This document shows positions 13,967-41,472 of a stretch of 64,000 bases of DNA, piece by piece (positions within the stretch are counted from its first letter, which is position 1; each line of letters begins with the position of its first letter). A program made the translations under genes and the position numbers. The DNA lies in IMG/VR virus record IMGVR_UViG_3300035670_000014, positions 106,949 through 170,948 of that record. One strand, 5' to 3'. Below the pieces are notes generated by a model. The model searched no databases. It saw nothing but the letters and a program-made list of their open reading frames with translations, and had not been told where the DNA came from. This DNA is from a virus.

Positions 13967-13974
13967 AAGTTACA

Positions 13975-15079: not shown

Positions 15080-15081
15080 CG

Positions 15082-21370: not shown

Positions 21371-21467
21371 ACAAATCTCCTAATGCTTGCCCCGTATCTG
21401 GAAATCAGATACTGATAAGAAAGGCATAATAAAGGCCCCGAAGGGGCCTGGGTCACAACAGTGGGAT

Positions 21468-22246: not shown

Positions 22247-22410
22247 CTAACCCTCCTAATCTAAAGTAAAAGGAACCAAGATAAAGGCCCCGAAGGGGCC
22301 AAGGTCATTTGTCTCTAATGTCGGAGAGACCCGTGATCAAAAAGCCCCTGAACACAGATAACACCAGTATGGTGCACCTGTGCCCAAGGGCATCACGTCC
22401 CGAGTGGGAC

Positions 22411-22953
22411 TTAGAACGGCAGGGCCTCGTCTTCCGACGAAGTGGCCACCGGCTCCGAAGGAGCCGTGGCCTTGCGGCCCGGTCCCCGACGGGCCGGCTG
22501 GGCTGCCTCGGTGCCTTGCTTCGCGATCAGCGAAGCAAGGTGGCTGAGTTGCTCCGGGGTGAAGTTCATTGCTGAACCACCACCTGAACCCGAGCCGCCA
22601 GTCGAACCCGACCCACCGCGAGCACGCTCTGCACCGCGGGGATCCAGCGTGAGCTGGGTCACCTGCATCTTGAGCGCAACGCCGTCCGTCCCGTCCTTAC
22701 GCTTGAAGGACACGGGCTCCAGCGAAGTAGAGTCCACGGTCAAGAAGTCGCCCTTGTGGACGTAGCGCTTCACTACGTCTGCGAGCGAGTCGCTGTTGAC
22801 GTAACAGTCGTGCTGTGTAGCACGAGTCACTTCCACTCCGTTGGCGTCCTTCCACCGCTTATTGTGGATAAGGCGGAACACCACGGAACCGGAGTCAAGG
22901 ATCTGAGGGTCTGCTGCAACGTTTCCGGTGACGGAATAATTCTGTCGTGACAT
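22411..22953 (-). CDS. ssb: single-stranded DNA-binding protein
   Basis: VTGNVAADP...KRWKDANG...KRYVHKGD...FKRKDG, Gly linker, acidic C-tail EDEALPF; start MSRQNY after GGAGG. Confidence 0.85.
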   Translation of the reverse strand: MSRQNYSVTGNVAADPQILDSGSVVFRLIHNKRWKDANGVEVTRATQHDCYVNSDSLADVVKRYVHKGDFLTVDSTSLEPVSFKRKDGTDGVALKMQVTQLTLDPRGAERARGGSGSTGGSGSGGGSAMNFTPEQLSHLASLIAKQGTEAAQPARRGPGRKATAPSEPVATSSEDEALPF

Positions 22954-23324
22954 GGTGGCACCTCCTGGTGTGTTTGGTAAATGAGCAGGACATGTCAACC
23001 TGCTCACCATAAAGGACCCGAAGGGGCCTTGCGCTAGAAGCCTCGGAATGAAGGCGAAAGGTAGTTGTGTGCACGGCGCTGGGTAATGGACACGGAGCGA
23101 GCGAAGCGAGCGGAGTTCGCCGGCTTACAAGAAAGAACTGAGAAAAAAGCCCCAACTGGGGCTGAGCACCTACTCACGAAGCATTTGCTTGTAGTGAGTA
23201 AGTTCTAGCTGGTGGGCGATCTTTATCCGGCGTATCTTGGTTTCCAGCTTGTCTATGTAGATAGCCAGGCCGGCGTTGCAACCACAGGCAAATACTAAGA
23301 TGATGTCATACATGAACTGGGGCA

Positions 23325-23573
23325 TCATGACTTCACCAGAGCCATGTCCAGGAGCCGCTGGACCTTCTGACGATAGACCTGGCGGTCGTAGTCCTCAACT
23401 GGAATAGACTGCTGAAGATGAGGCGTGTTGGTCAACTCAAAGACCTGAGCCTCCAGGTGATTGATTCGCTCAACAAACCTCATCTTCATTTCCCAGATGT
23501 ACATCCACATGATGATCAACAGGGCAGTCTCAGCAGCGGAAAGGAACATGAGAAAATTTAAACCAGTATCCAT
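23325..23573 (-). CDS. membrane-anchored coiled-coil protein, paralog A
   Basis: TM helix then EMKMRFVERINHLEAQ. Confidence 0.7.
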   Translation of the reverse strand: MDTGLNFLMFLSAAETALLIIMWMYIWEMKMRFVERINHLEAQVFELTNTPHLQQSIPVEDYDRQVYRQKVQRLLDMALVKS

Positions 23574-23616
23574 GGCAATCCTCCTGTTTTAGTCCGGCGA
23601 AATGCCAGACTTGTCA

Positions 23617-23817
23617 TTATAAAGATCCCGAAGGGATCTTGTGCCCTGTAGCTTCTTCATTGATCAGACTCGGCCAAGAAGTACGAGCCAGCTGAGCTTC
23701 AAGGTTGGCAACTCGGTCAGAGTTGCGCATCTTGAGTTCATAGATGTAAAGCCAGAGGATCACAACCATTCCGGTCATGAAGGCAGAGAGTGTCATGTAA
23801 AAGTAAGTAAAGTCCAT
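23617..23817 (-). CDS. membrane-anchored coiled-coil protein, paralog B
   Basis: TM helix then ELKMRNSDRVANLEAQ; same AGGAGGATT leader. Confidence 0.7.
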   Translation of the reverse strand: MDFTYFYMTLSAFMTGMVVILWLYIYELKMRNSDRVANLEAQLARTSWPSLINEEATGHKIPSGSL

Positions 23818-23856
23818 GAGAATCCTCCTGTTTAGTTCAGCGAAATGCTGAACGTG

Positions 23857-24114
23857 TCAGGCCAAAGACCCCGAAGGGGTCTGAGTCCCGCAGTAGTTCA
23901 AATCATGGTTATTAAGAGTAGAGATCAGAGCCACATAAGACACCTGGATGTCAAGCCGGGCTCCGTATCCAAATCTTTGCTCGACGTCACGAATGATTCG
24001 ATGCTCAGCATCACTGCTTGAGCAGCAAACTCTTCCTCTGGCAAGAAAATACTCACTCTCTCCAAGTATTGGAGTCTTGAATACTTTAGCTTCGTAGTAC
24101 CATGGCATTCTCAT
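23857..24114 (-). CDS. hypothetical protein
   Basis: AGGAGGA RBS, downstream of hairpin 24170. Confidence 0.65.
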   Translation of the reverse strand: MRMPWYYEAKVFKTPILGESEYFLARGRVCCSSSDAEHRIIRDVEQRFGYGARLDIQVSYVALISTLNNHDLNYCGTQTPSGSLA

Positions 24115-24568
24115 AAGTCCTCCTGTATTTTGGTTTTACTTGGGGTATCCCAAGTGCAAGATGCAAGTAAAAGATCCCGAAGGGATCTTTGTGCCTTGGA
24201 GCTGTTTACTTTTGAGGATAAAGGTCTCTAATGTCGGAGTGCAAGTTTGAAAAGACGGGGCGTTACGAAAGCCCCTGAACAACGACACTGTTCAATGCGT
24301 GCGCCCGCGCTGGTTTTCAGGCCGGCGTACAAAAGTTTAGTCTTCTTCTAGAAAAAAGAAACCCCATAGTGACCAGCTATGGGGGAATTCACTAAGGATA
24401 CACTAATGTATCAACTCGTGAACTCGGCAGGGAGGGTGTCTGCCTTCTCACCACATAGTCCCCGAAGGGGACTTGTTCCCTTAGCCAGAGATTATCTGTC
24501 TAGTATAAGGGAAATAACTGAAAATGAAAAGCCCCACTAGGGGGCAGAGCGAGATAGATGATGTTCTT

Positions 24569-24808
24569 CTATTCTGTGATTGAAACAGAATCTTCTGACA
24601 CCACCGGCTTGATACCCGAGCGACCTTCTACGATCGCCATAAAGCGACCGAGGAACTGCTCGCTAACACCAAGAGCAGAGATGTACTCTGCTTCAGTGTA
24701 TTCGACGGTAGCCTCTATCTCCAACTTTAAGGACTTATCCAGAATCCCAGCGCCAGGGTTAACGAAGGAAGCCGGAACAAGGGCATTGATTCTGAAAGAA
24801 GACTTCAC
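24569..24808 (-). CDS. hypothetical protein
   Basis: AAGGTG RBS, followed by terminator ~24526-24546. Confidence 0.6.
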   Translation of the reverse strand: MKSSFRINALVPASFVNPGAGILDKSLKLEIEATVEYTEAEYISALGVSEQFLGRFMAIVEGRSGIKPVVSEDSVSITE

Positions 24809-24941
24809 TGTTTCACCTTTTAATTGACTGGGGCGAAATTGCCCAGATGGTTTAATACCCTCGTTGCCATGAGGGCGGAGCCCGATGGTCTGCCTGAGCG
24901 AAGCGAACTACGCCGGCGCCAGTTGAAACTCAACTTCCTGC

Positions 24942-25160
24942 TCAATGATAGTATGAGAAGTAACTCTCATGGAGCAGTGTGCTGAGGCAGACCAGGGACA
25001 ATATGGTCGGTGCCCAGAAGAAACCAATCATCATAAAGTGGTCGAAGTTGTTGATGCTTGAGAAGCCTCGCTTGGCCCCATCAACCTGCTCGTTGGTAAA
25101 GCGAACTGTACACATGATTGACAACCACAAGCTAGCAGCAAATGCAAATACCTGGAACAT
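24942..25160 (-). CDS. small membrane protein
   Basis: Two hydrophobic segments, GAGGTG RBS. Confidence 0.6.
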   Translation of the reverse strand: MFQVFAFAASLWLSIMCTVRFTNEQVDGAKRGFSSINNFDHFMMIGFFWAPTILSLVCLSTLLHESYFSYYH

Positions 25161-25328
25161 AATTCACCTCTAATTTATCAGTAGGAAGAAATAGCCGAAA
25201 TGGCCGGAGAAAATGCTCGGTCACACTATGGGCCCCGAAGGGGCCCTGGAGCCTATGTGTCTTGGATGCAGGATAAGAGCTGAAAATGAGAAGCCCCACG
25301 AAGGGGCAAGAAAATACCATGGACACAG

Positions 25329-25505
25329 CTAAGCGGGTGTTACGACCACTGGCTGCATCTGATAGTACCCATAGCCGACTACACCAAGAAGGTAAGCCTC
25401 GGCTGACTGCTGTGCCTCCTCCAAAGAGGAGGCTTCAATTGCCCACGTCAAGACGAACGGATCGTCCCACGCGGGGCTAAGGTTAAAGTTGGCTCTGAAA
25501 AGCAT
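25329..25505 (-). CDS. hypothetical protein (MLFRANF...)
   Basis: AGGAG RBS, between hairpin 25570 and terminator ~25290. Confidence 0.6.
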   Translation of the reverse strand: MLFRANFNLSPAWDDPFVLTWAIEASSLEEAQQSAEAYLLGVVGYGYYQMQPVVVTPA

Positions 25506-25627
25506 GGCAACTCCTGTGGTGCTTTGCACCCGTGTTTGATCCAGGGAATCCCAGATCTAGTCGACTTATGGGCCCCGAAGGGGCCCTGGAGCCTATATGT
25601 CTAAGACTTAGGGTAAAGCTGGAAATG

Positions 25628-25647
25628 AAAAGCCCCCAGAAGGGGGC
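25628..25647 (-). terminator. intrinsic terminator after MYG1 gene
   Basis: GCCCCC-TTCT-GGGGGC-TTTT on minus strand. Confidence 0.65.
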
Positions 25648-25671
25648 AGGCGGTAGAGTTACCGCAACAGC

Positions 25672-26673
25672 TTAGCGGCCGGTGGCTAGCTTCGCCATTG
25701 CAAGCACACCCTCTCGGGTGGCCGCGCCGGCGATGAAGCGTCCAGGGTGACAGAAGATGGCATCTGCCACTCCAGTCAGAGCCTGAAGCTCCGAGTCACG
25801 CTTCGCTGCCCACTCCTCGGGCAGAGGAAGTCGCTTGTCAAACGACCCCTCCGAGGGAGGAACGCACTGAAGCATCCACTGACCTCTGGGGTCGGGATAG
25901 ACAACGAAGTCTATCCCTGTGGAGGAGTCAGCGTTAGCAGCGATAACTGGTCCTTGCCAGGAGCCGCCACGCTCCAGCACCAGCACGGTTTCGCCCTCAG
26001 CGAGGGCTTCCTGTGCCAGTTCCAGGATGCGGGCACGATCCAGCTCCGCCTTCATAGCGGAGCGAATCTCGGCAGCCAGCAGCGTGCCGGCCAACTCGAC
26101 TGCCCGCTCGAAAGCGGAGTCGAAGTCACCACCGTCCTCGGTGGGGTTCATCGCGCTGATAGCGCGACTCACCGACCAAACGTTGAGGCCCCGAGGAGCT
26201 GCTCCGACGTCTGCAGCGTCCACTGGCTGCACGACCTGTCGGTCGATCAGCTCCCAGACTGCCTCGGTGGCCGGGTCCGTGGTGTGCCCGCAAACCATGG
26301 CGATTGCGGTCCTGCCGAACGCGGCCCATGCCAGCCCGAAGGCTGCATAGGGAGCACCCTCGGGGGTGCCACCTCGACGGCCAGCAGCGTCCGTAGGCCT
26401 CCACTGGTGGTGGTCGAGGTAGTGGAGCGGGCCGGACTGTGCATGGTTGCGCTGCGTTTCATGACGTCCTCCGACGTCAATGACCGCAATCATGCAGCTG
26501 TCCAGGATCTCGGGCTGGCGAGTCCTGACAACAGCCAGACCCTCGCCGCAGTCAAATGCCAGCGCCGCCACGGCGCAGGCAAACGTCTCGTCTGCGTGGA
26601 ACACACCATCGTGTGTTCCGATGTGAGCGGGAGCAATTTTGGCTGCAGTTGTGTCGATGGTATGAATCAGCAT
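25672..26673 (-). CDS. MYG1 (UPF0160) family DHH 3'-5' exonuclease
   Basis: IGTHDGVFHADE, VVRTR, DVGG, LDHHQ, VDAADVG, LPEEW, AIFCHPGRFI. Confidence 0.9.
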   Translation of the reverse strand: MLIHTIDTTAAKIAPAHIGTHDGVFHADETFACAVAALAFDCGEGLAVVRTRQPEILDSCMIAVIDVGGRHETQRNHAQSGPLHYLDHHQWRPTDAAGRRGGTPEGAPYAAFGLAWAAFGRTAIAMVCGHTTDPATEAVWELIDRQVVQPVDAADVGAAPRGLNVWSVSRAISAMNPTEDGGDFDSAFERAVELAGTLLAAEIRSAMKAELDRARILELAQEALAEGETVLVLERGGSWQGPVIAANADSSTGIDFVVYPDPRGQWMLQCVPPSEGSFDKRLPLPEEWAAKRDSELQALTGVADAIFCHPGRFIAGAATREGVLAMAKLATGR

Positions 26674-26790
26674 GACTTCTCCTGTGGCCCAGAGGGCCGG
26701 TTTTGACTCGGGGGAGTCCCGAGTCTGGTCGCCTTATGGCACCCGAAGGGTGCCTGGACTTATAAGTCTCAGATCTAGGCAAGACCTGAG

Positions 26791-26813
26791 AAAGAAAAAG
26801 CCCCTTTCGGGGC
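26791..26813 (-). terminator. intrinsic terminator
   Basis: GCCCC-GAAA-GGGGC-TTTTTCTTT on minus strand. Confidence 0.7.
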
Positions 26814-26819
26814 GGGGGC

Positions 26820-27038
26820 TCAGGAGCTGGGAAGCCCCGGGAGGTTAATTAAGTGGGGACGCTCCGTCAACAACCGGAGCGCGGGCTCATCGCCCATACC
26901 CGGGCGCAGCACTGCCGCGTAGAGGTCCCTCAGCTTTTCGTAGTGTTTCCAGGTGTCCATATCGCGGGTTGTCGACGCGATCCACTTTGCATCATGGTAG
27001 TTGTTATAGCAAATGCTATGGGCCTCGGCTGCTGTCAT
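26820..27038 (-). CDS. hypothetical protein (MTAAEAH...)
   Basis: GGAGGAG RBS, between hairpin 27104 and terminator. Confidence 0.6.
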   Translation of the reverse strand: MTAAEAHSICYNNYHDAKWIASTTRDMDTWKHYEKLRDLYAAVLRPGMGDEPALRLLTERPHLINLPGLPSS

Positions 27039-27160
27039 AACTCCTCCGGTGGCGCCATGCGCCGGTTTTTGACTCAGGGAAATCCTGAGTCTGGTCACAC
27101 TATGGCACCCGAAGGGTGCCTGCAGCCAAAGTCCGTGATATAAGGCAAAAGTTGAGAAAT

Positions 27161-27179
27161 AAAAAACCCCTTTCGGGGT
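27161..27179 (-). terminator. intrinsic terminator
   Basis: ACCCC-GAAA-GGGGT-TTTTT on minus strand. Confidence 0.7.
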
Positions 27180-28080
27180 AGTTTACGCTTATTGCAACTC
27201 ACTTCCGGTTTCATCACCGGCTGGACCCTTCACCTTTACTACCAGCCCTATGATAGGGTATAGTTGCGACCGAAAGGTCGCAGCTGGTCGCTTCCGCGCG
27301 AATAGCGCCGCAGTCAACTATCCACCGGTTTGCACCCCGATGGTAGTCCTGCTAATATGAGTCTAGGTGACTCACAATAAGGGACCCGAAGGGTCCCTGC
27401 AGCTAAAACAACGTAAGAAAAAAGCCCAATCTTGCGACTGAGCTTAATCCCCACCTTCGGTGTATGTTTCGTGGTCTCATCACTCCAACCGCCACTTTCA
27501 GCGGGCCTTGGCAGGCGACGTGTTTCGGTTGTTCCTTGCCTAAGGGAAGCCTAGGTCATAATCTTGACCAATAGAAAAACCCCGAAGGGGTGCATGTCTT
27601 TATAAGAAAAATACCCAACCTGCAGATTGAGTAAATTTCCGAAGAGTGGCCACTCTTCTACCCGAATACCAGAGCCTCTGGTGTTCCCCTCGGGTCAGGG
27701 GGGCTTTGACATGCCAAAATTATTCTCCCCAAGTTGTCAGCTTGGGGACCCAGTTGTCGCTGGGATGGGGACTTCGCTCCCTGGGGTGACAGCCTCCCCT
27801 TGGGTTCGTATGCACGGTATCAGCGTGCTTAGATACGAAGAACATACCATGGTACCCGAAGGGTACCTGCAGTAAAAGCGGCGTATACAAATCTTTTCTT
27901 CTAGAAAAAAATACCCGCCTAGCGGAGTTCCAATAGTCAAACTATAAGTCTAACTACAAAGGAAAAGAGAACCCCTGCTCGCACCGCCACCTCCAATGGG
28001 AGATGACAGACACGACAGGGGGAGGTTCGCTGCGCTAGACTAGGCAGGCCTCATGTGGCGGGGGGACCACACTCACAAGA
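27180..28080 (-). ncRNA. Cluster of four candidate structured non-coding RNAs (hairpin-to-terminator units without convincing ORFs)
   Basis: Units start at hairpins 28081, 27851, 27579, 27380, end at T-tracts, and are rich in inverted repeats. Confidence 0.4.
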
Positions 28081-28177
28081 AGGCACCCGAAGGGTGCCTG
28101 CAAGTGTGTCCGAATGTCCGGCCGGCAGGGTGTCCGGCAGGGTGTGCGGAGCCCGCGAAGCGGGCAAGCTAGCGGAG

Positions 28178-31100
28178 TTATTCCTTGAAGAACTTCTCCA
28201 CGTACTTCTTGGCCGCAAGCTTGACTTTTGGCAGATTTGCAACCTTACACAGAAGCTGGCCAAGGTGATTCTCACCTTTACCCTTACACTTACCCCAGAA
28301 GGTATCACCCCAGTGGTTATTTTCCACAGGAGTAACTTTGCCGCCCGAAGTTGCAGCGTAAAGGCGAAAAGCCAAATACATTCCTTCTGGAGTATCTGCT
28401 TGGTCAGCAAACTTAGACTCCAGGATGCAGTACATGACATCTAACCTTAAAGCCTCCCAGGTTGCCATTGCATCAGGTGAAGAAGGCTTAAAGTCCTTAG
28501 CCTTCTTCTTTGCCGTGTACCCGTTGTCAGTAGGAAGAATAGTGTTTTCTTCTTGATTGAGAATATTACACTTAATCCACTGATACAAGGTCTCACTTGA
28601 GGCAAAGACAACACCATCTGCCACTACGGAGCACGGATACATGTTAGACATAAACTCAAAGTCCTTAGACTTAAAGTTATCAGTCTCACTGATTACCAGT
28701 TGTCCATAGTGGCTCTTTCGAGCTGAAGGCTCGTGCTCGGTCGACTTATTTGCCAGCTTCAACAAGATGTCACCGTGACACTTCTTGGGTGCACACCAGC
28801 ACACTAAGTCCTTGCCTTTCAATTCATGCAAAGATTTCATGAGTTCTGGTTGTTGTACTACCCAGTCAGCGTACTTCTCCACAGCTTCGTCTCGCGTCTG
28901 ACACTTCCACTTGGCTGATGTTTCAGCCTGGTGGCTAAATGGATTACCCCACTTAGTAGGGCGTCCAATGTAGACTGCGGTTTCGGGAGCCGTGTTGGCA
29001 TGCTTGTTGTGCACCACTGGCAAGCCAGGAGGAGTCGGAGGCGTGTCATTAACAACACCAACCAAAGACACATGACGAGCATTCTTCTTGCCCAAGGCAA
29101 GATACTTGTCATAGGTGTCCTTAACACCTCCAATTGGTCCGTTCTCCCCAAAGGTAAAGGCAATCAAGAAGTCCGAATCTTCCGCAATCAGAGTATTGCG
29201 ATCAAACAGGCCCTTGATCTCTCCACTCTGGAAAGTTACCTGGTGCCGCTCATCCCGAGGATCATTCCAGTAGGTATTAACCATTGCCTGGATGTCCTCA
29301 AGAGACCAGGACTGGCTTTCGCCGTCAGTCATGGCAAGGCTAAACTGCCGGTGATACTTATTCATGGCATCACCTGCGTCGTTTGCCTCTTTGACAGTAA
29401 AGGCATTATTCTCAAACTCAGCACCAAGGTGCAAAGTAAGAGCTTCAACCTCTGCGCCCATGAGGAGGGATATTGCAACATGGTCAGACCAAGCCGCACC
29501 TCCACTGACAAGACGAATCGCCTCGGCACCAGTTGCAGCCTTAATTGCTGCAACAGCCTTCTTGGTGCGCTCAACCATGAACAAGAAATGTTCTTTGGTC
29601 AAGTTCTCACCGCGGCCAGCGGTGCCAATAACACCCAGAGTCACCGTCTTCTCAGGCAAACGGTAGTAGCCGTCGATGTCCTCGGTGCGATTATCGCCAT
29701 CGCCGTCAAAAGTGACGACATAACGACTCTCATCGTTCCCAAGGAAGCTGATACCAGAGTAACCAGCTGCCTTCACTCGTGTGAAGAAGGCGTTGCTGTT
29801 GTCCCCTGGATTCAGCAGGTCGAACGGCTTACCAGTCTCCCGGTAGTGCTCAGACCGCAGCTGCTCGTAGGCCGCCCTTCCATCCTTGGACAGTCTAACC
29901 AAGAAGTTGGTAAGGTCAACCTTACGGGAGTCAATCTGACTTCCATAGGTCTTTGCCTCCTCCTTGTCCTCGGTCCAGTACTGGAATTCACGTCCATCGC
30001 TCCTACCATGAAGACCCTGATAGACAGTGACCTCAGCAGCAACTTCTGGTTCGACTTCTACTTCTGCTGGCCCTGGCTCAGGATCAGAGCCACTACAGAA
30101 GTCAAGAGACAGCTGATAGCGGTAGGAGTGACAGCCACTTCCATCTTCATCTCCGTAGAACCAGAACAAAAGAGGCTCTGAGAAATGGTGCAGGAAGTGC
30201 TCCATGAAAGCTTCATCCATGTCCCCTTGTTCCTCGAAGTACCCTACCTCAATGTAGAGGCCAGTATAGCCTCTCTTCTTGAGGTACAGGAAGAATTCAC
30301 CATCAGACTTCAGGTCCTCAATGAAGTCTTCACGAGTCTGCAGTGACTTAACATCAAGGCAGTACTCGATGTGGATCTTGAGGAGCTGACGAAGGCTGCT
30401 GGGCGACTCAATGACCAGCATAGCCGACCTATCAAAGACTCTATAGTCTCCGACGCCTGCCATGGAAGCTTGACTAGCAAGCCAGGTCGAGAAGTCCTCT
30501 TCCTCTTCCTCATCCCCCTCGTAGTACTTAGACGCAAGGATAAGGTTTGGATCAGGATCTGTAAATGGATGCCTATAAGTAGGCACTTCCACTTCAGGTT
30601 CCGCCTTCACCTCAGTCTTGATCTCGACTACCTCAGACTCGACAACCTCAGGCTTAGCCTCGACAACTTCAGCCTCGATCACCTCACTGTAAGTGAAGTC
30701 CTCGACTGCCACATCTTCGAGACCATCGAAGTCGTAGTTGTCGAAGTCCACATCAGTGTGATAGCCGATGGGGCCTGAGGTGTAGTCCACCTGCTCAACC
30801 GAAGGAGCGAACTCCGACAGGTCCAGCTTGCCGAGAGGAGAAACCTCGCCCTCAAATGCAACCGTGACCTTAAAGGTCGGGTGCAGAACCTGCACCGCTG
30901 GGTTGCTTGCCTTGGTATTCCCGGTCACATCAGTTTCGATGCTGATGACACGGTACTTGTCAAGGCCCTTGTGGGAGATAAACTCCTCAAGCAGCTCGGG
31001 GGTGACGACCTTCGTGTCTTTGAAGAAATCCCTGAAGGCCGTGTTGATCAAGGTTGTAGCACCCCTCTCAACCCTCAGCTTGCCAAGGAAATTCTCACCC

Positions 31101-34100
31101 TTGGTCTTGAGGATTCCACCACGCAGAACGTCACTCAGAAGCTGACCAACAACCTCAGAGTTGATCTGAGAAGCAACCTCAGAATCAAGCACGAAGGCAT
31201 CGCCAAACTCTGACTTCCGCTTGACCATCGGGGTCTTGATGTCAAGTCCCAACTCAGCCACGTCAGGCCCCTTGCCATTGATGAAGGCAAAGTAGGCCTT
31301 CCCGAAGTCCTTATACTCGTCGTTAAACGAGAAACCAAGGACAACGGTGCTCTGAGGAGCGGAAGCGCCCAGGACATTCAGGGCCTTGAGCGAGTAGACC
31401 CAAGGACCCTCAGGCAGGCCGTCAGCAGACATGACCGGCGTCCCGTCCTCATTCAGGTAGTTGCCCACATACAGAGTGTGGATGGGCAGCTTGTCAACCT
31501 GAATTGAACCGAAGCTCCGGCGGCCGCTCTTGATGAACTGCTCGCAGGAAAGCGCCCGCTCAGGATTGGCCTGGTCAGTCTTGAACGCGTTCGCACGCTT
31601 GACCAGCTGGAGGAAGGTCCAGAGGGCAAAGCGCAGCTTGCCAGACTCATTCCAGGCATGCCACTCCTTGAGCCAGGCCTGCTCGACAGCTGCCCTTGCA
31701 CGGATTCGGCTCTTCTTGTCAAGAGGAAGAGCTTCAACCTGGGCAATCTTGTCGAATCGACCCCTGTTCAAGCGAGAGCAGAAGTCTGCAAAACCTGCAA
31801 TCTCTGCCTCGTGGGTGCCAAGGGCAGCCTCAAGCTGAAGCCAGGGTGACTCCTCAAGAGTCTGCTCGACCTGCTCGAAGGCGATCCGCAACACGGAATC
31901 CTTGTACTTCTCGAACAAGTCAAAGACCCATGAAGTAGCACGCTCAACCTTCACGTTCTTGAACGCAAAGTGCAGTGCCTTGATGCCCTGACCGGTCGCA
32001 GCATCACCCTCCTGAAGGAGCTGACTCTGCCCAGCAAAAGGAGCCGCAAAGGCCGCAATGCCACGCTTCATCAGCCAGCCAGGGAAGTAGAACTTCATCT
32101 GGCTTGCAGGCAGCATGTGCATGCTGTACGAGACGGTAGTTTCACCCTCGTACTTTTCGACCTTCTTGCTCGGGTCGCCGAACAGAGCAAGGCCCATGTA
32201 CATGGAAACAGACCAGATCATCTGCATGACCTTTACTGCCTCCGGCACATTCTGACCCTGAGTGTCGGCGTCGATGACGTTCGACAGCATCTCTGACATG
32301 GTCAGCAAGATGAGGTCGAGGTAGGTCAAGGACTTCCACTCACCGTTCGGGTCAAGGCCATCAGACTCAATTACTGACCTGACGTTTGCCCTGAGGTTAA
32401 ACTTGTCACCAAAGTGAACAAGCCCCTGCATGATGGCACCCATCAGCATCTGCACGTTAGCTGCAGTACCAGTGGTGCCCTTCATGTTCTCCAGTGCAAA
32501 GATTGCACTGTCGACCCTCTCCAGAGGAGAGCTGAACACCCGGAGGTTGCCGCTCGTGTCAAGTGCACCCTCGGTGAAGTACCTCTCGGCAAACTGCAGC
32601 TTCGCCATGTTCATGATGAACGCAGTCAAGCCGACTGGGATAGTCGAAGGGGGAAGCTTGGCATTCGTTTTACCTTCTGCCTGCTTCCTATTCCTCCGCT
32701 CCTCAGCCTTCAGGTGAGCGTTGTTCAGCTCCTTGAGGACGAAGTCGTTGGCTGCCCTGTCTCCAACAAGGTCACGAACCAAAGCCTCGTCGTCTCCGCC
32801 AAAGCCAAAGGAGTACCAGCCTTTGAAGTCAAAGCGGGTATCCAGTGCCATGTGCCGGAACTGACCGACCTGAGAGTTCAGGAAGTCAAGAGCCACCTTC
32901 CTCTTCTCCTCGCCGGGAGTCATGGCAATAATGGCCTGCTTCTTGCGCTCCTGGAAGCGGATGCAAGACTTGGCCAAGTCGCCGTGAATCTCCGCCATCC
33001 GGTCGTCAAGGTCTGCACCGTCCTGTGCCTTGAAGAAGATTTCAAAGGCCTCAGGAGTTGGCATGACCCAGCGGCACCCGACTGGCACCGAGTCCATTGG
33101 GACAAGGATACCCCATGCTCCCGACTTGAAAGTCGAAGGGTTCCGGTAATAGAACACCAACGGGGAGCCATGCAGACCCATGATCCGGTTGTAATCTGCA
33201 GTGTTGCAGAAAATAACCCGGTTGTAATCATAGGTCAAGCCAAGTGGCTTGAGGTGATTCTCGACCAGAGACTTAATCTGCTCCTCAGATACTGCATTCT
33301 TATATGCAGACCAAAGAGCCTTCGTCTCGTCCTTGACGTTGAGCTTCATCACCTCAGCTACGGCCTCAAACATCAGGCCAGGGTGCACCTGCGGATACAC
33401 CGACTCAGCGATCTTGGTATACACCATCTCGCCGTTGGCGTTTGGCATCTTCAATGCCAAGGGCAGTCGGGTCCTTGCAGGGTCCATTGCCTGATTGGTG
33501 AGCTGGTTCATGATTGGCGCTACCAGCTGAGGCAGAGGAATGCCGTTCCCAATCACCTTAGCAGTCCCACCGAGGACCTCCTTGAGGCGGCTCGCAGCGA
33601 GGAGTGCGTCAGCAACGCCTTCAGGCTCTGACTCATCCCCATCCATGAGGTCGGTGAAGATCTCAGAGTCAAGCTCTGACATTTCGTTCTTCACTCTCAG
33701 GTTGGAGAGAATCTCCTCAAGGCGGGTCGTTGCATCCTCTTCAATCTTCTTGAAGATGTCAATGACCGCCGGATCCCTCAGGTCAAACCCGTTGATCAGG
33801 CTCTGAGTGTCAGTGCAGACACCCTTACGAGCCTTCGGGACACCCGAGTTCAGGATGATCGTAGCTCGATCATCTGACCAGGTGGGGCAGATTTCACCCT
33901 TTGACCCGTAGGCAATCATGTCCTTCCCAGTAGCCTTCATGAACTCTGGAGACATGATGTGGAAGCCACCCTTCACCATGAAGTTGGTGAAGTAGGCTCG
34001 GCCAATGAGGATCTTCCCATCGAGCTTGCCTGCCTTGAGGTCAGCCAGATAGTCCTGAGGCAGCACGAGAGCCATGAGGCGGCGAGAGACAAACACCACG

Positions 34101-35188
34101 CCGTCATAGATCTCATCGGCAAGCATTGCTGCCTTAGCCTTCTCGAACAGGCTGTCACCGTTAACTGGCTTGACGACCAGGACAGAGTCCTTAAGAGCAT
34201 TAAGCTTGAAGGTCTGCCCTTCCAGCTTGTAGCTCTTATTGAACTCAACGACCTTGCCACGGAGCAAGTTCGGCGCAAAGTACTGAGAAATGTACTTCTG
34301 CGCCTTCGCTGCAGCCTGCACCTGCTTCGCCGGTGAGCCGTCCTCTTTGACCTTCACTCCATAGACGCAAGAAGCAAGCTTCATTGCTTCGTCGTCAGTT
34401 GCCTTAGACAAGGCATCATTGGTCAAGTTGAGGAACAAGCAGGTGGGGTTGACATCGGGAGTCTTATCAATTCCCTTGTCGCTCTCCTCCCAGGTCTCCC
34501 CAGCGGCCTCAGCTGCCTTCCGCTTCAACTCCCTGAGCTGCTTCTTCTCAGCCTTCTTGGAGGCCTCGATTCGTCGCTCATAGAGTGAGTCCATCGAGTC
34601 TTTGCTGAGAGCATTGACCAGAGAGGTCCTGGCAGCAACCTCGACCTGCTCGGACCCATAGTTGGTCTGAATCAGGTTGAGTGTTGCCCATGCCTGAGCA
34701 AGCTCGCCCGCAGTCAGGTGGCGCAGGTCGCCGTGCTTCTTCAGACAGTCAAGCGCTCGCTTGACCGTGAAGTAGAAGTCAATGCTTGCGCCTGAGCTTG
34801 GAGCCCGGTGCAGGTGATGCAAAGACTTCTGCCAGACATTGACGTCGCCAGGCTTCACGTTAAACGGCTTAAAGCCGTAAAACTTCTCAAAAGCGGCCAT
34901 GATTTCTGCCGTCTTCTGAGCATACGGTGCCATGGAGTCAACGTGGACCTTGTAGGCCACCTTGGCATCTTTCTCGTCAAATCCTGGCCAGTTGAAAAGC
35001 TCAGGAGACGTCAGGTTGAGTCCAACCTTATGCCCAAGCAGAACACGGATCATTGCCACTGCCGCAGGCAATACGAGGGACTTGTAGTCTTCCTCGTTGC
35101 AGCGGATAGCCTCGATGTTCTCAGACTTCAGCGTCTTGAAGAGTTCGAGTGCCTGGTCATTGGCTACTTCTACTTTCACTTCGCTCAT
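28178..35188 (-). CDS. Polyvalent protein: putative single-chain two-barrel (YonO/RdRP-like) RNA polymerase plus ART-like, SLOG-like, DUF4326 and NADAR domains
   Basis: MVKGG, GSKGE, FYYRNPS, QDGADLDD (RNAP-like); YQG...QYWTEDKEEAKTYG...GYSGI (ART-like); VSGGAAWSDH...RNTLIAEDSDFLIAF (SLOG); YIGRPTKWGNPF...LKGKDLVCWCAPKKCHGD (DUF4326); MSNMYPC...SETLYQ...WGDTFWGKCKGKGENHLG (NADAR); likely start MSEVKV after AGGAGG. Confidence 0.65.
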   Translation of the reverse strand: MSEVKVEVANDQALELFKTLKSENIEAIRCNEEDYKSLVLPAAVAMIRVLLGHKVGLNLTSPELFNWPGFDEKDAKVAYKVHVDSMAPYAQKTAEIMAAFEKFYGFKPFNVKPGDVNVWQKSLHHLHRAPSSGASIDFYFTVKRALDCLKKHGDLRHLTAGELAQAWATLNLIQTNYGSEQVEVAARTSLVNALSKDSMDSLYERRIEASKKAEKKQLRELKRKAAEAAGETWEESDKGIDKTPDVNPTCLFLNLTNDALSKATDDEAMKLASCVYGVKVKEDGSPAKQVQAAAKAQKYISQYFAPNLLRGKVVEFNKSYKLEGQTFKLNALKDSVLVVKPVNGDSLFEKAKAAMLADEIYDGVVFVSRRLMALVLPQDYLADLKAGKLDGKILIGRAYFTNFMVKGGFHIMSPEFMKATGKDMIAYGSKGEICPTWSDDRATIILNSGVPKARKGVCTDTQSLINGFDLRDPAVIDIFKKIEEDATTRLEEILSNLRVKNEMSELDSEIFTDLMDGDESEPEGVADALLAASRLKEVLGGTAKVIGNGIPLPQLVAPIMNQLTNQAMDPARTRLPLALKMPNANGEMVYTKIAESVYPQVHPGLMFEAVAEVMKLNVKDETKALWSAYKNAVSEEQIKSLVENHLKPLGLTYDYNRVIFCNTADYNRIMGLHGSPLVFYYRNPSTFKSGAWGILVPMDSVPVGCRWVMPTPEAFEIFFKAQDGADLDDRMAEIHGDLAKSCIRFQERKKQAIIAMTPGEEKRKVALDFLNSQVGQFRHMALDTRFDFKGWYSFGFGGDDEALVRDLVGDRAANDFVLKELNNAHLKAEERRNRKQAEGKTNAKLPPSTIPVGLTAFIMNMAKLQFAERYFTEGALDTSGNLRVFSSPLERVDSAIFALENMKGTTGTAANVQMLMGAIMQGLVHFGDKFNLRANVRSVIESDGLDPNGEWKSLTYLDLILLTMSEMLSNVIDADTQGQNVPEAVKVMQMIWSVSMYMGLALFGDPSKKVEKYEGETTVSYSMHMLPASQMKFYFPGWLMKRGIAAFAAPFAGQSQLLQEGDAATGQGIKALHFAFKNVKVERATSWVFDLFEKYKDSVLRIAFEQVEQTLEESPWLQLEAALGTHEAEIAGFADFCSRLNRGRFDKIAQVEALPLDKKSRIRARAAVEQAWLKEWHAWNESGKLRFALWTFLQLVKRANAFKTDQANPERALSCEQFIKSGRRSFGSIQVDKLPIHTLYVGNYLNEDGTPVMSADGLPEGPWVYSLKALNVLGASAPQSTVVLGFSFNDEYKDFGKAYFAFINGKGPDVAELGLDIKTPMVKRKSEFGDAFVLDSEVASQINSEVVGQLLSDVLRGGILKTKGENFLGKLRVERGATTLINTAFRDFFKDTKVVTPELLEEFISHKGLDKYRVISIETDVTGNTKASNPAVQVLHPTFKVTVAFEGEVSPLGKLDLSEFAPSVEQVDYTSGPIGYHTDVDFDNYDFDGLEDVAVEDFTYSEVIEAEVVEAKPEVVESEVVEIKTEVKAEPEVEVPTYRHPFTDPDPNLILASKYYEGDEEEEEDFSTWLASQASMAGVGDYRVFDRSAMLVIESPSSLRQLLKIHIEYCLDVKSLQTREDFIEDLKSDGEFFLYLKKRGYTGLYIEVGYFEEQGDMDEAFMEHFLHHFSEPLLFWFYGDEDGSGCHSYRYQLSLDFCSGSDPEPGPAEVEVEPEVAAEVTVYQGLHGRSDGREFQYWTEDKEEAKTYGSQIDSRKVDLTNFLVRLSKDGRAAYEQLRSEHYRETGKPFDLLNPGDNSNAFFTRVKAAGYSGISFLGNDESRYVVTFDGDGDNRTEDIDGYYRLPEKTVTLGVIGTAGRGENLTKEHFLFMVERTKKAVAAIKAATGAEAIRLVSGGAAWSDHVAISLLMGAEVEALTLHLGAEFENNAFTVKEANDAGDAMNKYHRQFSLAMTDGESQSWSLEDIQAMVNTYWNDPRDERHQVTFQSGEIKGLFDRNTLIAEDSDFLIAFTFGENGPIGGVKDTYDKYLALGKKNARHVSLVGVVNDTPPTPPGLPVVHNKHANTAPETAVYIGRPTKWGNPFSHQAETSAKWKCQTRDEAVEKYADWVVQQPELMKSLHELKGKDLVCWCAPKKCHGDILLKLANKSTEHEPSARKSHYGQLVISETDNFKSKDFEFMSNMYPCSVVADGVVFASSETLYQWIKCNILNQEENTILPTDNGYTAKKKAKDFKPSSPDAMATWEALRLDVMYCILESKFADQADTPEGMYLAFRLYAATSGGKVTPVENNHWGDTFWGKCKGKGENHLGQLLCKVANLPKVKLAAKKYVEKFFKE

Positions 35189-35271
35189 GAGACCCTCCTG
35201 GTCTACGTGGGGTTGGTTCCCCTGGTCATTTGCATCCGGCAGACTATCTGCCTTTTGCACAGTAATAATTG

Positions 35272-35967
35272 TCATGACTTGGCCTTAGGCTCGGCTAAGC
35301 AGGGTGACTGCAAACCCTCCGAAGGAGGGTCGGGCCATGCTTGCTCTGTATCCAGAGCAAGGTAAGCAGCCTCGGCAGCTGCCTGCTCCTCAAGCTGGCA
35401 GTCGTGCATCCACTGGTCGAACATTGCCTGAGACCAAGCAAGCTCGTCATCATCAGTGAAGTGCCTAGACCTGTCCGCTGCAGCAGGTACTTGCTCGACC
35501 CACTTCTCCAAAGCTCGTTCCAGTTCCCATCGCTGGAATTCCAGGTTTGGCCAGTCATTGCCAAGGAACAGGGAACAGCCCATGGCCGAGGGCAAGCTGG
35601 CCATAGAGAAGACCTCAGCCTCCTCCTCAACATGCCACTGATCGTAGCTGTTAATGGCTTGAGCCCAGCGGATTCGGACCCCGCAGCTCAGAACCTGCCC
35701 TTTTTCCTGAGCCTGAGCCCACTCGATCTGCTCTCGCAGCTCCGAGTAGTACTCATCCCAGTCGTGCATGGTAGCGTAAGATACGCCACCCACTGCAACC
35801 TCAGTGTTGAGGCTGTAGAAGTGCGAATCCTGACGCAACATCTCTGCCGCGACCTCGGCTGCTTCCTCAGTAGTTTCCCACTGAGCAAGGAGATCAGGGC
35901 ACTCGTCCGCCTTACTGGCCTTGAACTTACCCACAATCATAGAGATCATAAGCTTAAAGTATTTCAT
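35272..35967 (-). CDS. acidic Trp-rich hypothetical protein
   Basis: GAGGG RBS before MKYFKL; GC3-rich codon use. Confidence 0.7.
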   Translation of the reverse strand: MKYFKLMISMIVGKFKASKADECPDLLAQWETTEEAAEVAAEMLRQDSHFYSLNTEVAVGGVSYATMHDWDEYYSELREQIEWAQAQEKGQVLSCGVRIRWAQAINSYDQWHVEEEAEVFSMASLPSAMGCSLFLGNDWPNLEFQRWELERALEKWVEQVPAAADRSRHFTDDDELAWSQAMFDQWMHDCQLEEQAAAEAAYLALDTEQAWPDPPSEGLQSPCLAEPKAKS

Positions 35968-37478: not shown

Positions 37479-37759
37479 TTATTACCTCCAAGGGTAAATG
37501 AAGTTTAGGAGTAGCAGCAGGATTGCTACTATCCAGGGCTAGGATCACGGCCCAAGACCAAAGTGTCATGTCTTTGACACTATGGGTCTCATATTAAATG
37601 AAAAAAGAATGGAATACATCTTCTAGAAGAAGAATGAACTCCAATTCCCCGCGAAGATAAATGCCAATGGCAAATGTCTCCTGTGAGATTATAAGTCTCA
37701 TATTAAATAAAAAAGGAATGGAAATTAATCCATTCCTTCCCCCTGACCTCACCTAAGCG

Positions 37760-37906
37760 TTATTCAACGCAAAGGCGGGTCAGTTCATCAGGCGGGCAGT
37801 GGTGGTTGTACTCCTGCGCGTTCCACACATGCAGCGCGATAGCTGCAGCGAGAACCACCAGGAAAAATACCACCGTTACCAACCGATCGACAAACACCTT
37901 GTCCAT
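37760..37906 (-). CDS. small membrane protein (MDKVFVDR...)
   Basis: GGAGGAG RBS, single TM. Confidence 0.6.
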   Translation of the reverse strand: MDKVFVDRLVTVVFFLVVLAAAIALHVWNAQEYNHHCPPDELTRLCVE

Positions 37907-38030
37907 AACTCCTCCGATGGTTAACCTATACACCATAAGGTAAGGGATTAACAGAGAATGAGACGACATGTCTCATTCCCCATGAAAAAAGAATGCAACC
38001 AGGCCGAAGCCTGGCTGCATTCTTCAAACT

Positions 38031-38468
38031 TTATGCCCAGTTTCTACTCTTGGCCTTGAGGGGCCTGTGGTACCTGGGCTCCGGTGGTGGGAGCTTTGCC
38101 GGCTCCCACTCCTGGGCCCAGGCCAGTCGCTCTTCCGCCTCCCGCTCCAAGCGGGCCCGGAGGCGGCGGTCGGCCTCCGCCTCTTCCCGGGCGGCCTTGG
38201 CCGCCTGGGCCTCCCGCACCAGGCGGGCGTCTTTCGACGCCCACTCATTTTCCCAGGCCGAGCACCTGGGTACGTAGTCGGGCATTGGGGCCTGCGCCCA
38301 GAGTGGGCGCTGGTCCTTGGGTGCGGGGGCCGGGGCAGGTGCGGCGGCGGTAGTGCTGGTGGTTGCGGTGGGGGTGGTGGCGGTGATGGCAGCCATGGCC
38401 CGAGCTTCTGCTCGGGCAACGATGACTATGACTACGACGACAATAACAACGATGATGTCAAGCAACAT
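38031..38468 (-). CDS. membrane-anchored Thr/Pro/Ala-rich coiled-coil protein
   Basis: Val/Ile TM, TTPTATT-PAPAP linker, EAQAAKAAREEAE. Confidence 0.7.
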   Translation of the reverse strand: MLLDIIVVIVVVVIVIVARAEARAMAAITATTPTATTSTTAAAPAPAPAPKDQRPLWAQAPMPDYVPRCSAWENEWASKDARLVREAQAAKAAREEAEADRRLRARLEREAEERLAWAQEWEPAKLPPPEPRYHRPLKAKSRNWA

Positions 38469-38594
38469 GAGCGAAACTCCCGACTAGTACCTACTAGCCT
38501 TAATGGGATGGATAGGAAATGAGACAGAATGTCTCATTCCCCATGAAAAAAGAATGCAACCAGGCCGAAGCCTGGCTGCATTCTTCAATCTTCC

Positions 38595-38780
38595 TTACTT
38601 AGCCCGAGTCCTCCAGGCATGAAGGAACTTAACTGGATGCATTACTGCATCCAAAAAGTCAAGGAAAGTGACCGGGTCTGCGCCCAGGTGGGCCCATGCC
38701 CACTCCGCGACGACGTAGATCAGGAAGGCCACCGATGCCAGAACGAGGATAGAAACAGCCACCAAGAACAATGTGAACAT
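38595..38780 (-). CDS. small membrane protein
   Basis: N-terminal TM, GGGAG RBS from repeat leader. Confidence 0.65.
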   Translation of the reverse strand: MFTLFLVAVSILVLASVAFLIYVVAEWAWAHLGADPVTFLDFLDAVMHPVKFLHAWRTRAK

Positions 38781-38905
38781 GGCGAACTCCCGGCTAGCGA
38801 CACGCTAGCCTTATTGGGATCAATAGGAAATGAGACAGAATGTCTCATTCCCCATGAAAAAAGAATGCAACCAGGCCGAAGCCTGGCTGCATTCTTTAAT
38901 CTTAC

Positions 38906-39208
38906 TTACCAGCTATCGACAAAAGCGTCGACAAGCTGACCCCAGGTCACCCAGTCCTGGCACGCCAACCCAAGCTCGTCGTGCCAGCCCAGGTCGGGGT
39001 CCATGCCCCCGAGCTCGCTGAGGATCACGACTGTGTCCCACATTGCGCCAGATGGAGTTCCCTTGAAGAGGAACTCGGCCGTCAGGCGGTCGATCCCATG
39101 GGGGCCGACGTAACCCACTGTAAAATCTCCGCTGTAGCTGAGGATGTTGGGGCAGTAGCCCAGCAGGATGCGGGTGGCGGTGATGGTGGTGGTAGTGGTG
39201 TTCTGCAT
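38906..39208 (-). CDS. hypothetical protein (MQNTTTTT...)
   Basis: GGGAG RBS from repeat leader. Confidence 0.65.
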   Translation of the reverse strand: MQNTTTTTITATRILLGYCPNILSYSGDFTVGYVGPHGIDRLTAEFLFKGTPSGAMWDTVVILSELGGMDPDLGWHDELGLACQDWVTWGQLVDAFVDSW

Positions 39209-39336
39209 GGCGAAACTCCCGGCTAGCGACACGCTAGCCATGATGGGATGGATAGGAAATGAGACAGAATGTCTCATTCCCCATGAAAAAAGAATGCAAC
39301 CAGGCCGAAGCCTGGTTGCACCTTTAATCTTAGACC

Positions 39337-40400: not shown

Positions 40401-41472
40401 AGGAACTGAGAAAGCTAAAGCCAGAGGAGAGACTTCGTCTCTCAGTCCAGAAGAAAGGAAAGCAGAAAGGCACAGGAAAGCCATGGCAAAGTACATGGCA
40501 AAGAGAAGGCAAAAGGAGAAGGAAGCCAGACAGATTCTGGCCAGGGAAGAGAAGGCAAAGCAAGCGGCCGAAAAGGAGGAAATTGCAAAAAATCTGGAGG
40601 AACAAATTGCAAGTGTTCCCCCTGGGAAGCATTTTGCAACAGAGTTGCAAAAGAAGAACTCCTTAAATGAATTAGATTTTGGCCGCGTTTTAAATGATGC
40701 TTTAACTGTAATTGAACCTTCTCAGGTAAATGTAGAAGAGTTCTTCAGTTTTCTGGAGTTGAACAAATATAATGAGACCCTTTATAAGGGCATAACCATG
40801 ACCAGGGCCATGGCAGAGGGAATTAAGAATCACCTCATGGCAATGAAGCATGGTACTTACAGTGCTGTTCCTTTACTCTGTAAAGGTGGTCTTAAGTGTC
40901 CCATGGTCAGTCAGTGTTGGTTTGCTCACAGGGATGATGATGGTCAAATAGATCATGAGAAATCTACATACCCTTTATTTAAACCTTGTCCTGTAGAGTC
41001 TGGAATTATTGAGTTAAAGATTAGACAATATATTAGTGAACACCTGGGGAATAACATGAACATTACTCCCAGTGTTATGAATCTTATTTCCCGGCTTGCT
41101 GAGTTGGATATATATGAAATAAGAGCTGACATATTACTTAGTACCGGTTCTGCTCTTAGCTCGGATGGGCAGAATCTCCTTATTACCGTGGTTGATGCAA
41201 TAAATCAAAAAAGCGGGGAGGCATTCTTCACCGTAAAAGAGCATCCTGCCTTGGTAATCAAAGAGAAGCTACAGAATCAAAAAGATCGACTTATGAAAAG
41301 TCTGCTTAGTACACCTGAAGCTAAGCTTGCTATGGCAGCTAAGCTTAAAGGTACAAGTGAAAAATCTGATCAGACAAACATATTAACTCAGATTGCAACT
41401 ACCCTGAAAAAGAATGCATCAAAAGTAGATTCTTATTGGGACGTTGATTTAATTGATCCAGAGGATCTATGA
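40390..41472 (+). CDS. Cys-motif coiled-coil protein, possibly terminase small subunit
   Basis: LCKGGLKCPMVSQC...PCPVE; position upstream of TerL; function inferred only. Confidence 0.45.
   Translation: MTNRGTEKAKARGETSSLSPEERKAERHRKAMAKYMAKRRQKEKEARQILAREEKAKQAAEKEEIAKNLEEQIASVPPGKHFATELQKKNSLNELDFGRVLNDALTVIEPSQVNVEEFFSFLELNKYNETLYKGITMTRAMAEGIKNHLMAMKHGTYSAVPLLCKGGLKCPMVSQCWFAHRDDDGQIDHEKSTYPLFKPCPVESGIIELKIRQYISEHLGNNMNITPSVMNLISRLAELDIYEIRADILLSTGSALSSDGQNLLITVVDAINQKSGEAFFTVKEHPALVIKEKLQNQKDRLMKSLLSTPEAKLAMAAKLKGTSEKSDQTNILTQIATTLKKNASKVDSYWDVDLIDPEDL

Follow-up and report, generated by a model that had tools for sequence, protein, structure and literature searches.

A divergent predicted two-barrel RNA polymerase with a shortened acidic loop in the genome of an uncultured tailed phage

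The stretch of DNA analysed here, 64,000 nucleotides long and called the window in the following, is the final 64 kb of the IMG/VR record IMGVR_UViG_3300035670_000014. The record is a complete virus of 170,948 bp with direct terminal repeats, and its source is an uncultured tailed phage with a 171-kb genome. On the minus strand the window carries the gene of a 2,365-residue protein, P0001, in which a two-barrel polymerase core is followed by a set of ADP-ribose/NAD-related domains (Table 1). P0001 is the sole open reading frame (ORF) longer than 500 amino acids (aa) in the presented stretch 28,178-35,188. The initial annotation had placed a divergent single-chain RNA polymerase with a Gly-less catalytic loop at 30800-35188. 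This span does lie inside one ORF, but the ORF is longer and extends from 28178 to 35275. Our results on the fold and on the conservation of catalytic residues support the polymerase assignment. It is likely that P0001 residues ~315-1415 form a single-chain two-barrel nucleotide polymerase, which most probably serves the phage as a DNA-dependent RNA polymerase (RNAP) of its own.

Table 1. Features of the P0001 gene and of its surroundings (positions in the window; pLDDT, predicted local distance difference test; DPBB, double-psi beta-barrel)
Feature	Positions	Strand	Basis or remark
P0001, whole ORF, 2,365 aa	28178..35275	minus	N-terminal region, two-barrel polymerase core, acidic linkers, C-terminal ADP-ribose/NAD toolkit
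Polymerase core, aa 315-1415 (modelled part)	31031..34333	minus	standalone homologues align; AlphaFold2, Foldseek, VIA, ESM Atlas
First barrel (beta-like, DPBB-B), ~aa 385-500	33776..34123	minus	strands at model residues 79-83, 108-114, 119-127, 139-142, 156-161; pLDDT 78-94
Second barrel (beta-prime-like, DPBB-A), ~aa 604-785	32921..33466	minus	isolated DPBBs and RNAP largest subunits align to model residues 284-473; pLDDT 86-95
Putative metal-binding loop D752-G-A-D755-L-D757-D758	33002..33022	minus	between model helix 427-435 and strand 446-450
Two helical motifs 3' of the loop: G-x-x-G-x-A-A-N-x-Q-M...Q-G (aa 933-951) and S-x-M-L-S-[DN]-[VI]-I-D-A-x-[TN]-Q-G (aa 994-1009)	32249..32479	minus	invariant columns
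ART-PolyVal-like segment, aa 1758-1858	29702..30004	minus	PF18760, E 0.0071, 17.6 bits, below the 31.2 cut-off
SLOG-like segment (DprA/YpsA/YAcAr type), aa 1870-2095	28991..29668	minus	lead only: ESM Atlas feature search, scores 0.91-0.93
DUF4326, aa 2093-2173	28757..28999	minus	PF14216, E 3.8e-24, 85.6 bits; phrog_464
NADAR, aa 2204-2345	28241..28666	minus	PF08719, E 4.2e-7, 30.8 bits, just below the 35.1 cut-off; phrog_1017, 1e-24; NCBIfam NADAR models
Hairpin ACCCTCC-GAA-GGAGGGT, 7-bp stem	35314..35330	plus	ends 38 nt before the P0001 ATG; GAA on the template strand
Upstream ORF, 244 aa	35272..36006	minus	ATGA overlap couples translation to P0001
Sole opposite-strand hairpin copy GAGAGAC-TTC-GTCTCTC	40427-40443	C-TTC-G on plus	heads the plus-strand structural/terminase block; GAA again on the template strand
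Large terminase (TerL)	47901-50048		closest, distantly: Moorella phage MTATph1, Acinetobacter phage ME3, Bacillus phage 0305phi8-36

Family and predicted fold of the polymerase core

P0001 belongs to a small family. A word-index search retrieved three relatives of 2,253-3,002 aa with ~52% identity to P0001, and when 1.84 billion cluster representatives were scanned exhaustively with phmmer, nine proteins emerged, among them one of 2,020 aa (33% identity) and seven standalone proteins of 1,090-1,260 aa (20-24% identity). Two further members came from a profile search (one protein via the word index) and from JGI metagenome contigs (4 loci). The family has ~14 members, all metagenomic, and about half of them are standalone homologues of 1,090-1,315 aa. 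The standalone proteins match P0001 residues ~300-1450 along nearly their entire length and thereby define the polymerase module. No family member was found among GenBank phages searched by tblastn or in the 185,579 prokaryotic genomes of GTDB, and none was confirmed in IMG/VR searched with three differently ordered alignments. In the literature we found no paper describing the P0001 family or its DxDD loop.

The template-free AlphaFold2 model of residues 315-1415, built from a 13-sequence alignment, has a pLDDT of 73.2 and a predicted template modelling score (pTM) of 0.71. The barrels reach pLDDT values of 85-95, and 175 of the 1,101 modelled residues are below 50. A single-sequence AlphaFold model of residues 330-1300 was unusable (pLDDT 38). 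The DPBB expected from the initial annotation is present in the model, which shows a cleft formed by two such barrels and an overall likeness to solved members of the superfamily. Among the PDB matches listed by Foldseek at E <= 1e-3, 14 out of 14 are QDE-1 or crAss gp66: QDE-1 with E 3e-6 to 2e-5, the Thielavia QDE-1 with 5e-4 and gp66 of crAss phage phi14:2 with 5.4e-6. The next matches are P32 gp64, P74 gp62, P23-45 gp96 and plant RDR2, and unrelated folds appear only at E >0.1. VIA, which is independent of Foldseek and covered 48,161 PDB chains, gave whole-core matches in line with this result (QDE-1, RDR2, P74-26 gp62, P23-45 gp96 and crAss gp66). In BFVD the matches are fragments of crAss-like virion RNA polymerases (vRNAPs), P23-45 gp64 and uncharacterised proteins of uncultured phages. 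The top cluster in ESM Atlas carries the Pfam domain RdRP (PF05183) in 78% of its members and aligns with TM 0.46/0.49 over 623 residues. Isolated DPBB domains (CDC48-N, VAT-N and designed DPBB proteins) align to model residues ~290-470. Judging from the model, P0001 is structurally homologous to the single-chain two-barrel RNA polymerases and stands outside any defined sequence family. On the same structural grounds the P0001 family is a new, unannotated and very deep phage polymerase branch, detectable by structure only. Such a branch bears on the idea that single-chain viral enzymes are ancient.

Comparison with known enzymes shows what P0001 shares with each of them and where it departs. 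QDE-1 of Neurospora and plant RDR2 (PDB 2J7N, 7Y7P, 7W84) have ~10-13% identity to P0001, and their loop is D-Y-D-G-D as compared to D-x-D-D in P0001. Unlike these RNA interference (RNAi) polymerases, P0001 is phage-encoded, probably works on DNA and carries ~950 aa of unrelated enzymes in the same chain. Similarly to P0001, YonO of the Bacillus prophage SPbeta is a phage-encoded single-chain two-barrel enzyme, and its DNA-dependent RNA polymerase activity is proven (PMC5467207). The motif order in YonO is similar to that in P0001, i.e. R...KG, R-x-P, acidic loop, A-N-[IV]-G/Q and [VI]-I-D-x-x-[KT]. However, the YonO loop is the canonical D-N-D-G-D, and its family comprises >4,600 clusters as compared to the ~14 members found here. 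A YonO-like enzyme has also been reported in Bacillus phage 0305phi8-36 (PMC7824862), whose terminase resembles that of the P0001 phage. The non-virion enzymes P23-45 gp64 and P74-26 gp62 and the virion enzyme P23-45 gp96 have no sequence similarity to P0001 and keep the DxDxD loop. The P23-45 and P74-26 enzymes are characterised by a tape-measure fusion (gp96) and by AT-rich or GC-rich linear promoters, whereas P0001 has an ADP-ribose/NAD toolkit and candidate hairpins. crAss gp66 (PDB 6VR4), another giant phage protein, has a QDE-1-like core, and its loop, DFDID, is the only published precedent for a residue other than Gly inside the loop. It is important to note that DFD[IV]D keeps the Asp spacing, while P0001 does not. 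P0001 does not qualify as a gp66-type virion polymerase, which is defined by a DFD[IV]D loop together with virion packaging.

Catalytic residues and the D-x-D-D loop

Conservation was read from alignments of 12-13 homologues with 18-53% identity to P0001. In the 13-sequence alignment ~41 of roughly 1,100 P0001 positions are invariant. In the first barrel these are D391-G392 (in the motif YDG), R426 (IGR), K435-G-G437, K459, S477, K484 and T488-D489-x-Q491. The second barrel bears R711-x-P713-x-T715...G719, in which all letters are invariant, and D755-x-D757-D758. The invariant set further includes D598/R601/R603, G936/A939/N940/Q942/M943 and S994/L997/S998/D1002/Q1006.

Ruprich-Robert and Thuriaux (PMC2919709) have described eight residues that are common to all two-barrel RNA polymerases. 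In QDE-1 these are D709, R738, K743, R962, P964, D1007, D1009 and D1011, with the counterparts D837, K979 and K987 in Rpb2 and R446 and P448 in Rpb1. Seven of the eight have invariant counterparts in P0001 that follow each other in the same order: D391, R426, K435, R711, P713, D755 and D757. The motif order KG...R-x-P...acidic loop, which had been noted from the sequence initially, fits the published list (Asp, R...KG, R-x-P, D-x-D) including the spacing. More specifically, R426 and K435 are found at +35 and +44 from D391 and are invariant in all 13 sequences, and R711 is separated from D755 by 44 residues as compared to 45 between R962 and D1007 of QDE-1. The residue preceding D391 is never acidic, and an acidic residue at this place is likewise missing in the RdRP/YonO lineage (PMC2919709).

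The four motifs named in the initial annotation are all where they were expected: MVKGG near 33970 contains K435-G-G437 (33965-33973, with K435 at 33971-33973), YYRNPS near 33145 contains R711-N-P713 (33137-33145, with R711 at 33143-33145), and DGADLDD at ~33003-33022 corresponds to D752-D758. The fourth, GSKGE near 33900, had also been taken for a KG motif. Its lysine K459 (33899-33901) is invariant, but GSKGE is probably not the canonical KG, to which R426 and K435 fit better.

The loop indeed lacks the Gly. All 13 sequences read [DE]-[GT]-[AG]-D-x-D-D, and the three residues D755, D757 and D758 do not vary in any of the homologues found. D752 and G753 are conserved to at least 90%, and residue 752, three residues before D755, is always D or E. 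Position 759, where the canonical third Asp would be, is occupied by R, G, A, H or S and is acidic in none of the 13 sequences. D758 takes the Gly position, and the D-x-D-D loop is one residue shorter than D-x-D-G-D. Reviews, including PMC2919709, term the Asp-x-Asp-x-Asp loop of two-barrel polymerases invariant, and its fourth position is Gly in all characterised enzymes save crAss gp66 (Ile or Val in crAss phages). Loss of the Gly would imply a variant metal-binding geometry. The two helical motifs on the 3' side of the loop may be counterparts of the bridge helix and the trigger loop; their sequences share the order of A-N-I-G...N-I-T-K and then V-I-D-Y-A-K-T in an alignment with YonO.

In the mechanism that we propose, the first barrel would give D391, R426 and K435, and the second barrel would give R711-x-P713 and the acidic loop D755-x-D757-D758. 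Both barrels together would bind two Mg2+ ions and a nucleoside triphosphate, like other two-barrel enzymes. The third carboxylate would come from the residue that, gp66 aside, is Gly in every characterised enzyme, and the loop would thus be one residue shorter; the near-invariant D752 may assist. If this is true, DxDD would be a functional substitute for the 'invariant' DxDGD. By shortening this loop while retaining all other catalytic residues, the family provides a natural test of how invariable the two-metal site of cellular-type RNA polymerases is, and its single-chain standalone members (1,090-1,315 aa) could be convenient for expression.

Role in the phage and alternative explanations

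The replication module of the phage is encoded at positions 62995-71950 of the genome (G000 C1). It contains a fused DnaG-DnaB primase-helicase of 845 aa, a polymerase of the Pol III alpha type (840 aa) and a metallophosphoesterase, and a class II-like ribonucleotide reductase is found at genome positions 79122-81119. As the genome has its own primase-helicase and Pol III alpha, P0001 is not needed for replication or priming, and these enzymes rule it out as the replicative polymerase or primase. No paralogue of the P0001 polymerase was found in the same genome, and the Pfam beta-prime domain has no match there. T7-like PF00940 also gave no match in the genome, but the control genomes gave none either; the P0001 fold is of the two-barrel and not of the right-hand type. 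With replication enzymes of its own, no other polymerase of the family and no beta-prime, the phage most likely uses P0001 as its transcriptase. We infer that the core is catalytically active and that its template is DNA.

An active two-barrel polymerase does not have to be a general transcriptase. P0001 could be an RNA-dependent RNA polymerase, or it could make primers or short RNAs on single-stranded DNA (ssDNA), and it may start replication or counter host defence; primer or short-RNA synthesis on ssDNA has been proposed as a function of QDE-1 and of some bacterial RdRP-like genes. The closest structures, QDE-1 and RDR2, are RNAi polymerases active on RNA and ssDNA (PMC9508822), crAss gp66 transcribes in vitro single-stranded or denatured DNA only, and the fusion of P0001 to conflict-type domains fits such a role. 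However, we consider it improbable. A DnaG-type primase-helicase and Pol III alpha are already encoded by the phage, the searches of its genome gave no further candidate for an RNA polymerase, and promoter-like strand-specific elements are conserved alongside the close homologues of P0001. Moreover, all characterised phage-encoded members (YonO, gp66, gp64 and gp96) are DNA-dependent transcriptases (for YonO, PMC5467207).

Several observations weigh against assigning P0001 to the polymerases. The Asp residues of the loop are at i, i+2 and i+3 and not at i, i+2 and i+4, and this departure from DxDxD could mean altered or lost catalysis. The three carboxylates are kept, so the chemistry may be preserved through a different loop. 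D391/R426/K435 and D755/D757/D758 were equated with QDE-1 residues by their order, spacing and invariance and by the secondary structure. At the sequence level, the first 1,450 residues of P0001 have no match in Pfam, PHROGs, NCBIfam or the PDB sequences, and the three profile collections gave no polymerase match for P0001 and seven homologues. PF05183 does not match P0001 at E <= 1. phmmer and hmmsearch against the PDB, started from the protein and from profiles of the whole core and of the second barrel, found no polymerase, QDE-1 and RDR included, and the best PDB sequence matches (RSV F and kindlin) are due to chance. Comparison with YonO by hhalign, using the single sequence and a 14-sequence family, for the whole protein and for the second barrel, was not significant (Prob 0.08-0.26%). 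The best local pairings, below significance, put IGR..KGG on R..KG of YonO and RNPST on RSPHL.

The loop leads to a further explanation, that P0001 is a catalytically dead descendant of a polymerase which now has a structural or ejection role or provides the C-terminal enzymes with a nucleic-acid-binding scaffold, with DxDD reflecting lost metal binding. The departure from a rule held invariant would agree with this, as would the very large multidomain protein, since ejection proteins are of this kind. Nevertheless, dead enzymes lose their catalytic residues, while in the P0001 family D391, R426, K435, R711, P713 and the three loop Asp residues are invariant at 18-30% identity, standalone forms included, and three carboxylates are kept within four residues. 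A dead enzyme is even less probable than an active enzyme that is not a transcriptase. Least probable of all is that P0001 is no polymerase homologue and that the likeness is an artefact of short motifs and a shallow-alignment model: the alignment has 13 sequences only, the low-confidence residues and the failed single-sequence model have been mentioned, and the profile and PDB searches give no sequence-level link, but the model is template-free, Foldseek and VIA over PDB, BFVD and ESM Atlas put the same superfamily on top and well apart from unrelated folds, and the invariant residues coincide with its known catalytic positions.

Hairpins, fused domains and the surrounding genome

Hairpins were counted if they had a perfect stem and a 3-nt loop. 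With a GAA loop, 41 such hairpins were found on the plus and 9 on the minus strand, as compared to ~4 in shuffled sequence. Those closed by a C:G pair number 24 and 1, respectively; the 24 occur at 87.6-142.3 kb of the genome overall and, in the window, at 20625-28164 and 35314-35330. All 24 C-GAA-G hairpins are located within the minus-strand gene block and have GAA on the template strand. Each of them is followed by a minus-strand gene or an ORF-less unit and is usually preceded by a separate terminator. In the sense orientation the layout is a GC-rich stem, TTC, the stem again, a ATAGTGTGA-like sequence, often a leader hairpin and the start codon 38-70 nt on. Many of the hairpins lie 30-70 nt past an intrinsic terminator, and at least seven follow a canonical terminator within ~70 nt. 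The strand bias is also seen in relatives: 19 vs 0 on L007, the contig of P0002 (polymerase of 52% identity), and 11 vs 1 on L009, the contig of P0005 (33%). The hairpin ahead of the P0001 gene has counterparts before or inside the polymerase gene on both contigs (L009 at 9926 and L007 at 12950).

Our results suggest that the strand-specific C-GAA-G hairpins may be promoters of the P0001 polymerase. They look analogous to the promoters of the coliphage N4 vRNAP, a giant polyvalent injected polymerase that is comparable in its way of working only, being T7-like right-hand and not homologous to P0001. The N4 enzyme binds short GC-rich hairpins extruded on the template strand and contacts the loop purines -11 and -10 (PMC4496689). 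If the link is true, it is a second, independent case of hairpin promoters. Two points speak against it. Instead of being DNA promoters, the hairpins could work at the RNA level with a UUC loop, and hairpins with GAA or TTC loops are absent from L005, the contig of the standalone homologue P0007. The possibility that GAA hairpins are ordinary terminators was rejected for most of them, which have no U-tract and are found just downstream of separate canonical terminators; a few are terminator-like, e.g. at 27579-27591.

Other hairpins were noticed as well. At L005 13851-22936, eight GGGGCC-AAA-GGCCCC hairpins followed by T-runs (terminators) punctuate the genes downstream of the polymerase. A second repeat class is present at window positions 37572-39320, where three copies have the 9-bp palindrome AATGAGACA-GAA-TGTCTCATT in common; the loop differs in the copy at 37956. 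The fuller repeats consist of a UUCG-loop terminator, the palindrome and a leader, and they are set between small unrelated genes upstream of the polymerase operon. Just downstream of the polymerase gene, at 27157-28074, there are four hairpin-headed units without a convincing ORF (the next ORFs are 37-67 aa), which may be small RNAs or peptides.

Pfam identifies only the C-terminal end of P0001. DUF4326 is clear, NADAR is near the threshold and ART-PolyVal is below the cut-off; the SLOG-like segment is a lead from Atlas clusters with PF02481, PF06908 and PF10686 and has no Pfam match. Such a composition may be that of a polyvalent protein, a kind of large polypeptide from phages and conjugative elements that joins several unrelated effector or early-function domains and is predicted to reach the host cell together with the DNA (Iyer et al. 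2017, PMC5512222); the RNA polymerase modules in that work are of the N4 type only. Some crAss vRNAP proteins in BFVD are labelled ART-PolyVal-like, similarly to the segment in P0001. Judging from its fused ART-like, SLOG-like, DUF4326 and NADAR domains, the P0001 polypeptide may also deal with ADP-ribose/NAD-based defence or modification of the host, and the fusion would link early transcription to counter-defence. A separate DUF4326 gene is found on L005 near the standalone polymerase P0007.

On whether P0001 is packaged in the virion and delivered with the DNA, the evidence is about evenly balanced. Delivery, for which N4 vRNAP, crAss gp66 and P23-45 gp96 are precedents, is favoured by the size of the protein, its conflict-type C-terminal domains, the lack of recognisable host promoters and the hairpin ahead of the polymerase gene. 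Terminator-like sites around the P0001 gene are enriched (29 vs 13.9 expected). Sigma-70-like promoters are not enriched at 27-41 kb (6 found vs 7.0 expected), a count that may miss the promoters of the host. Obligatory packaging is opposed by the location of the gene in an early-like block, away from the virion genes, and by the half of the family that is standalone without polyvalent domains. A more far-reaching scheme is that a virion-delivered DxDD polymerase runs the whole transcription programme and reads extruded C-GAA-G hairpins of the template strand, as an N4-like convergence, while the fused domains disarm NAD/ADP-ribose defences at DNA entry. We put this forward tentatively and regard it as rather unlikely in its full form.

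Regarding the genomic surroundings, the P0001 gene is near the start of a leftward block of ~85 kb. A counterpart of the upstream 244-aa ORF is joined in frame to the polymerase in the relative P0002 (3,002 aa). The P0001 gene diverges from a conserved module that encodes proteins of 370 aa, 1,435 aa (with a staphylococcal nuclease (SNase) domain), 418 aa and 279 aa and then TerL, and the divergent arrangement of polymerase and SNase-terminase genes is also found around the homologues P0002, P0005 and P0007. The 1,435-aa protein (window 41469-45776), between the divergent junction and the terminase, has its SNase domain at aa 978-1094, and SNase-domain proteins occupy the equivalent site on L007 (1,445 aa) and L009 (1,150 aa). 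There are six tRNA genes. A MYG1-family exonuclease-like gene (window 25672-26673; PF03690, E 2e-60) is located in the hairpin-cassette region and is present on L007 too.

GC content is mostly 47-57% in the leftward block at ~10-40 kb, the polymerase gene included, with one bin of 38% at 18-20 kb. In the structural block and in the 0-10 kb region it is 34-44%, which is a strong contrast within one phage genome. At window positions 13800-16710 there is a cluster of paralogous minus-strand ORFs of ~150-210 aa with GC-rich repeats of 6-, 12- and 18-nt period. These ORFs encode low-complexity tails rich in Gly-Tyr, Gly-Ser or Gly-Asp (e.g. 15735-16370), and the start region at the head of each paralogue is conserved (CATACTTCCTCCCAAGG on the plus strand).

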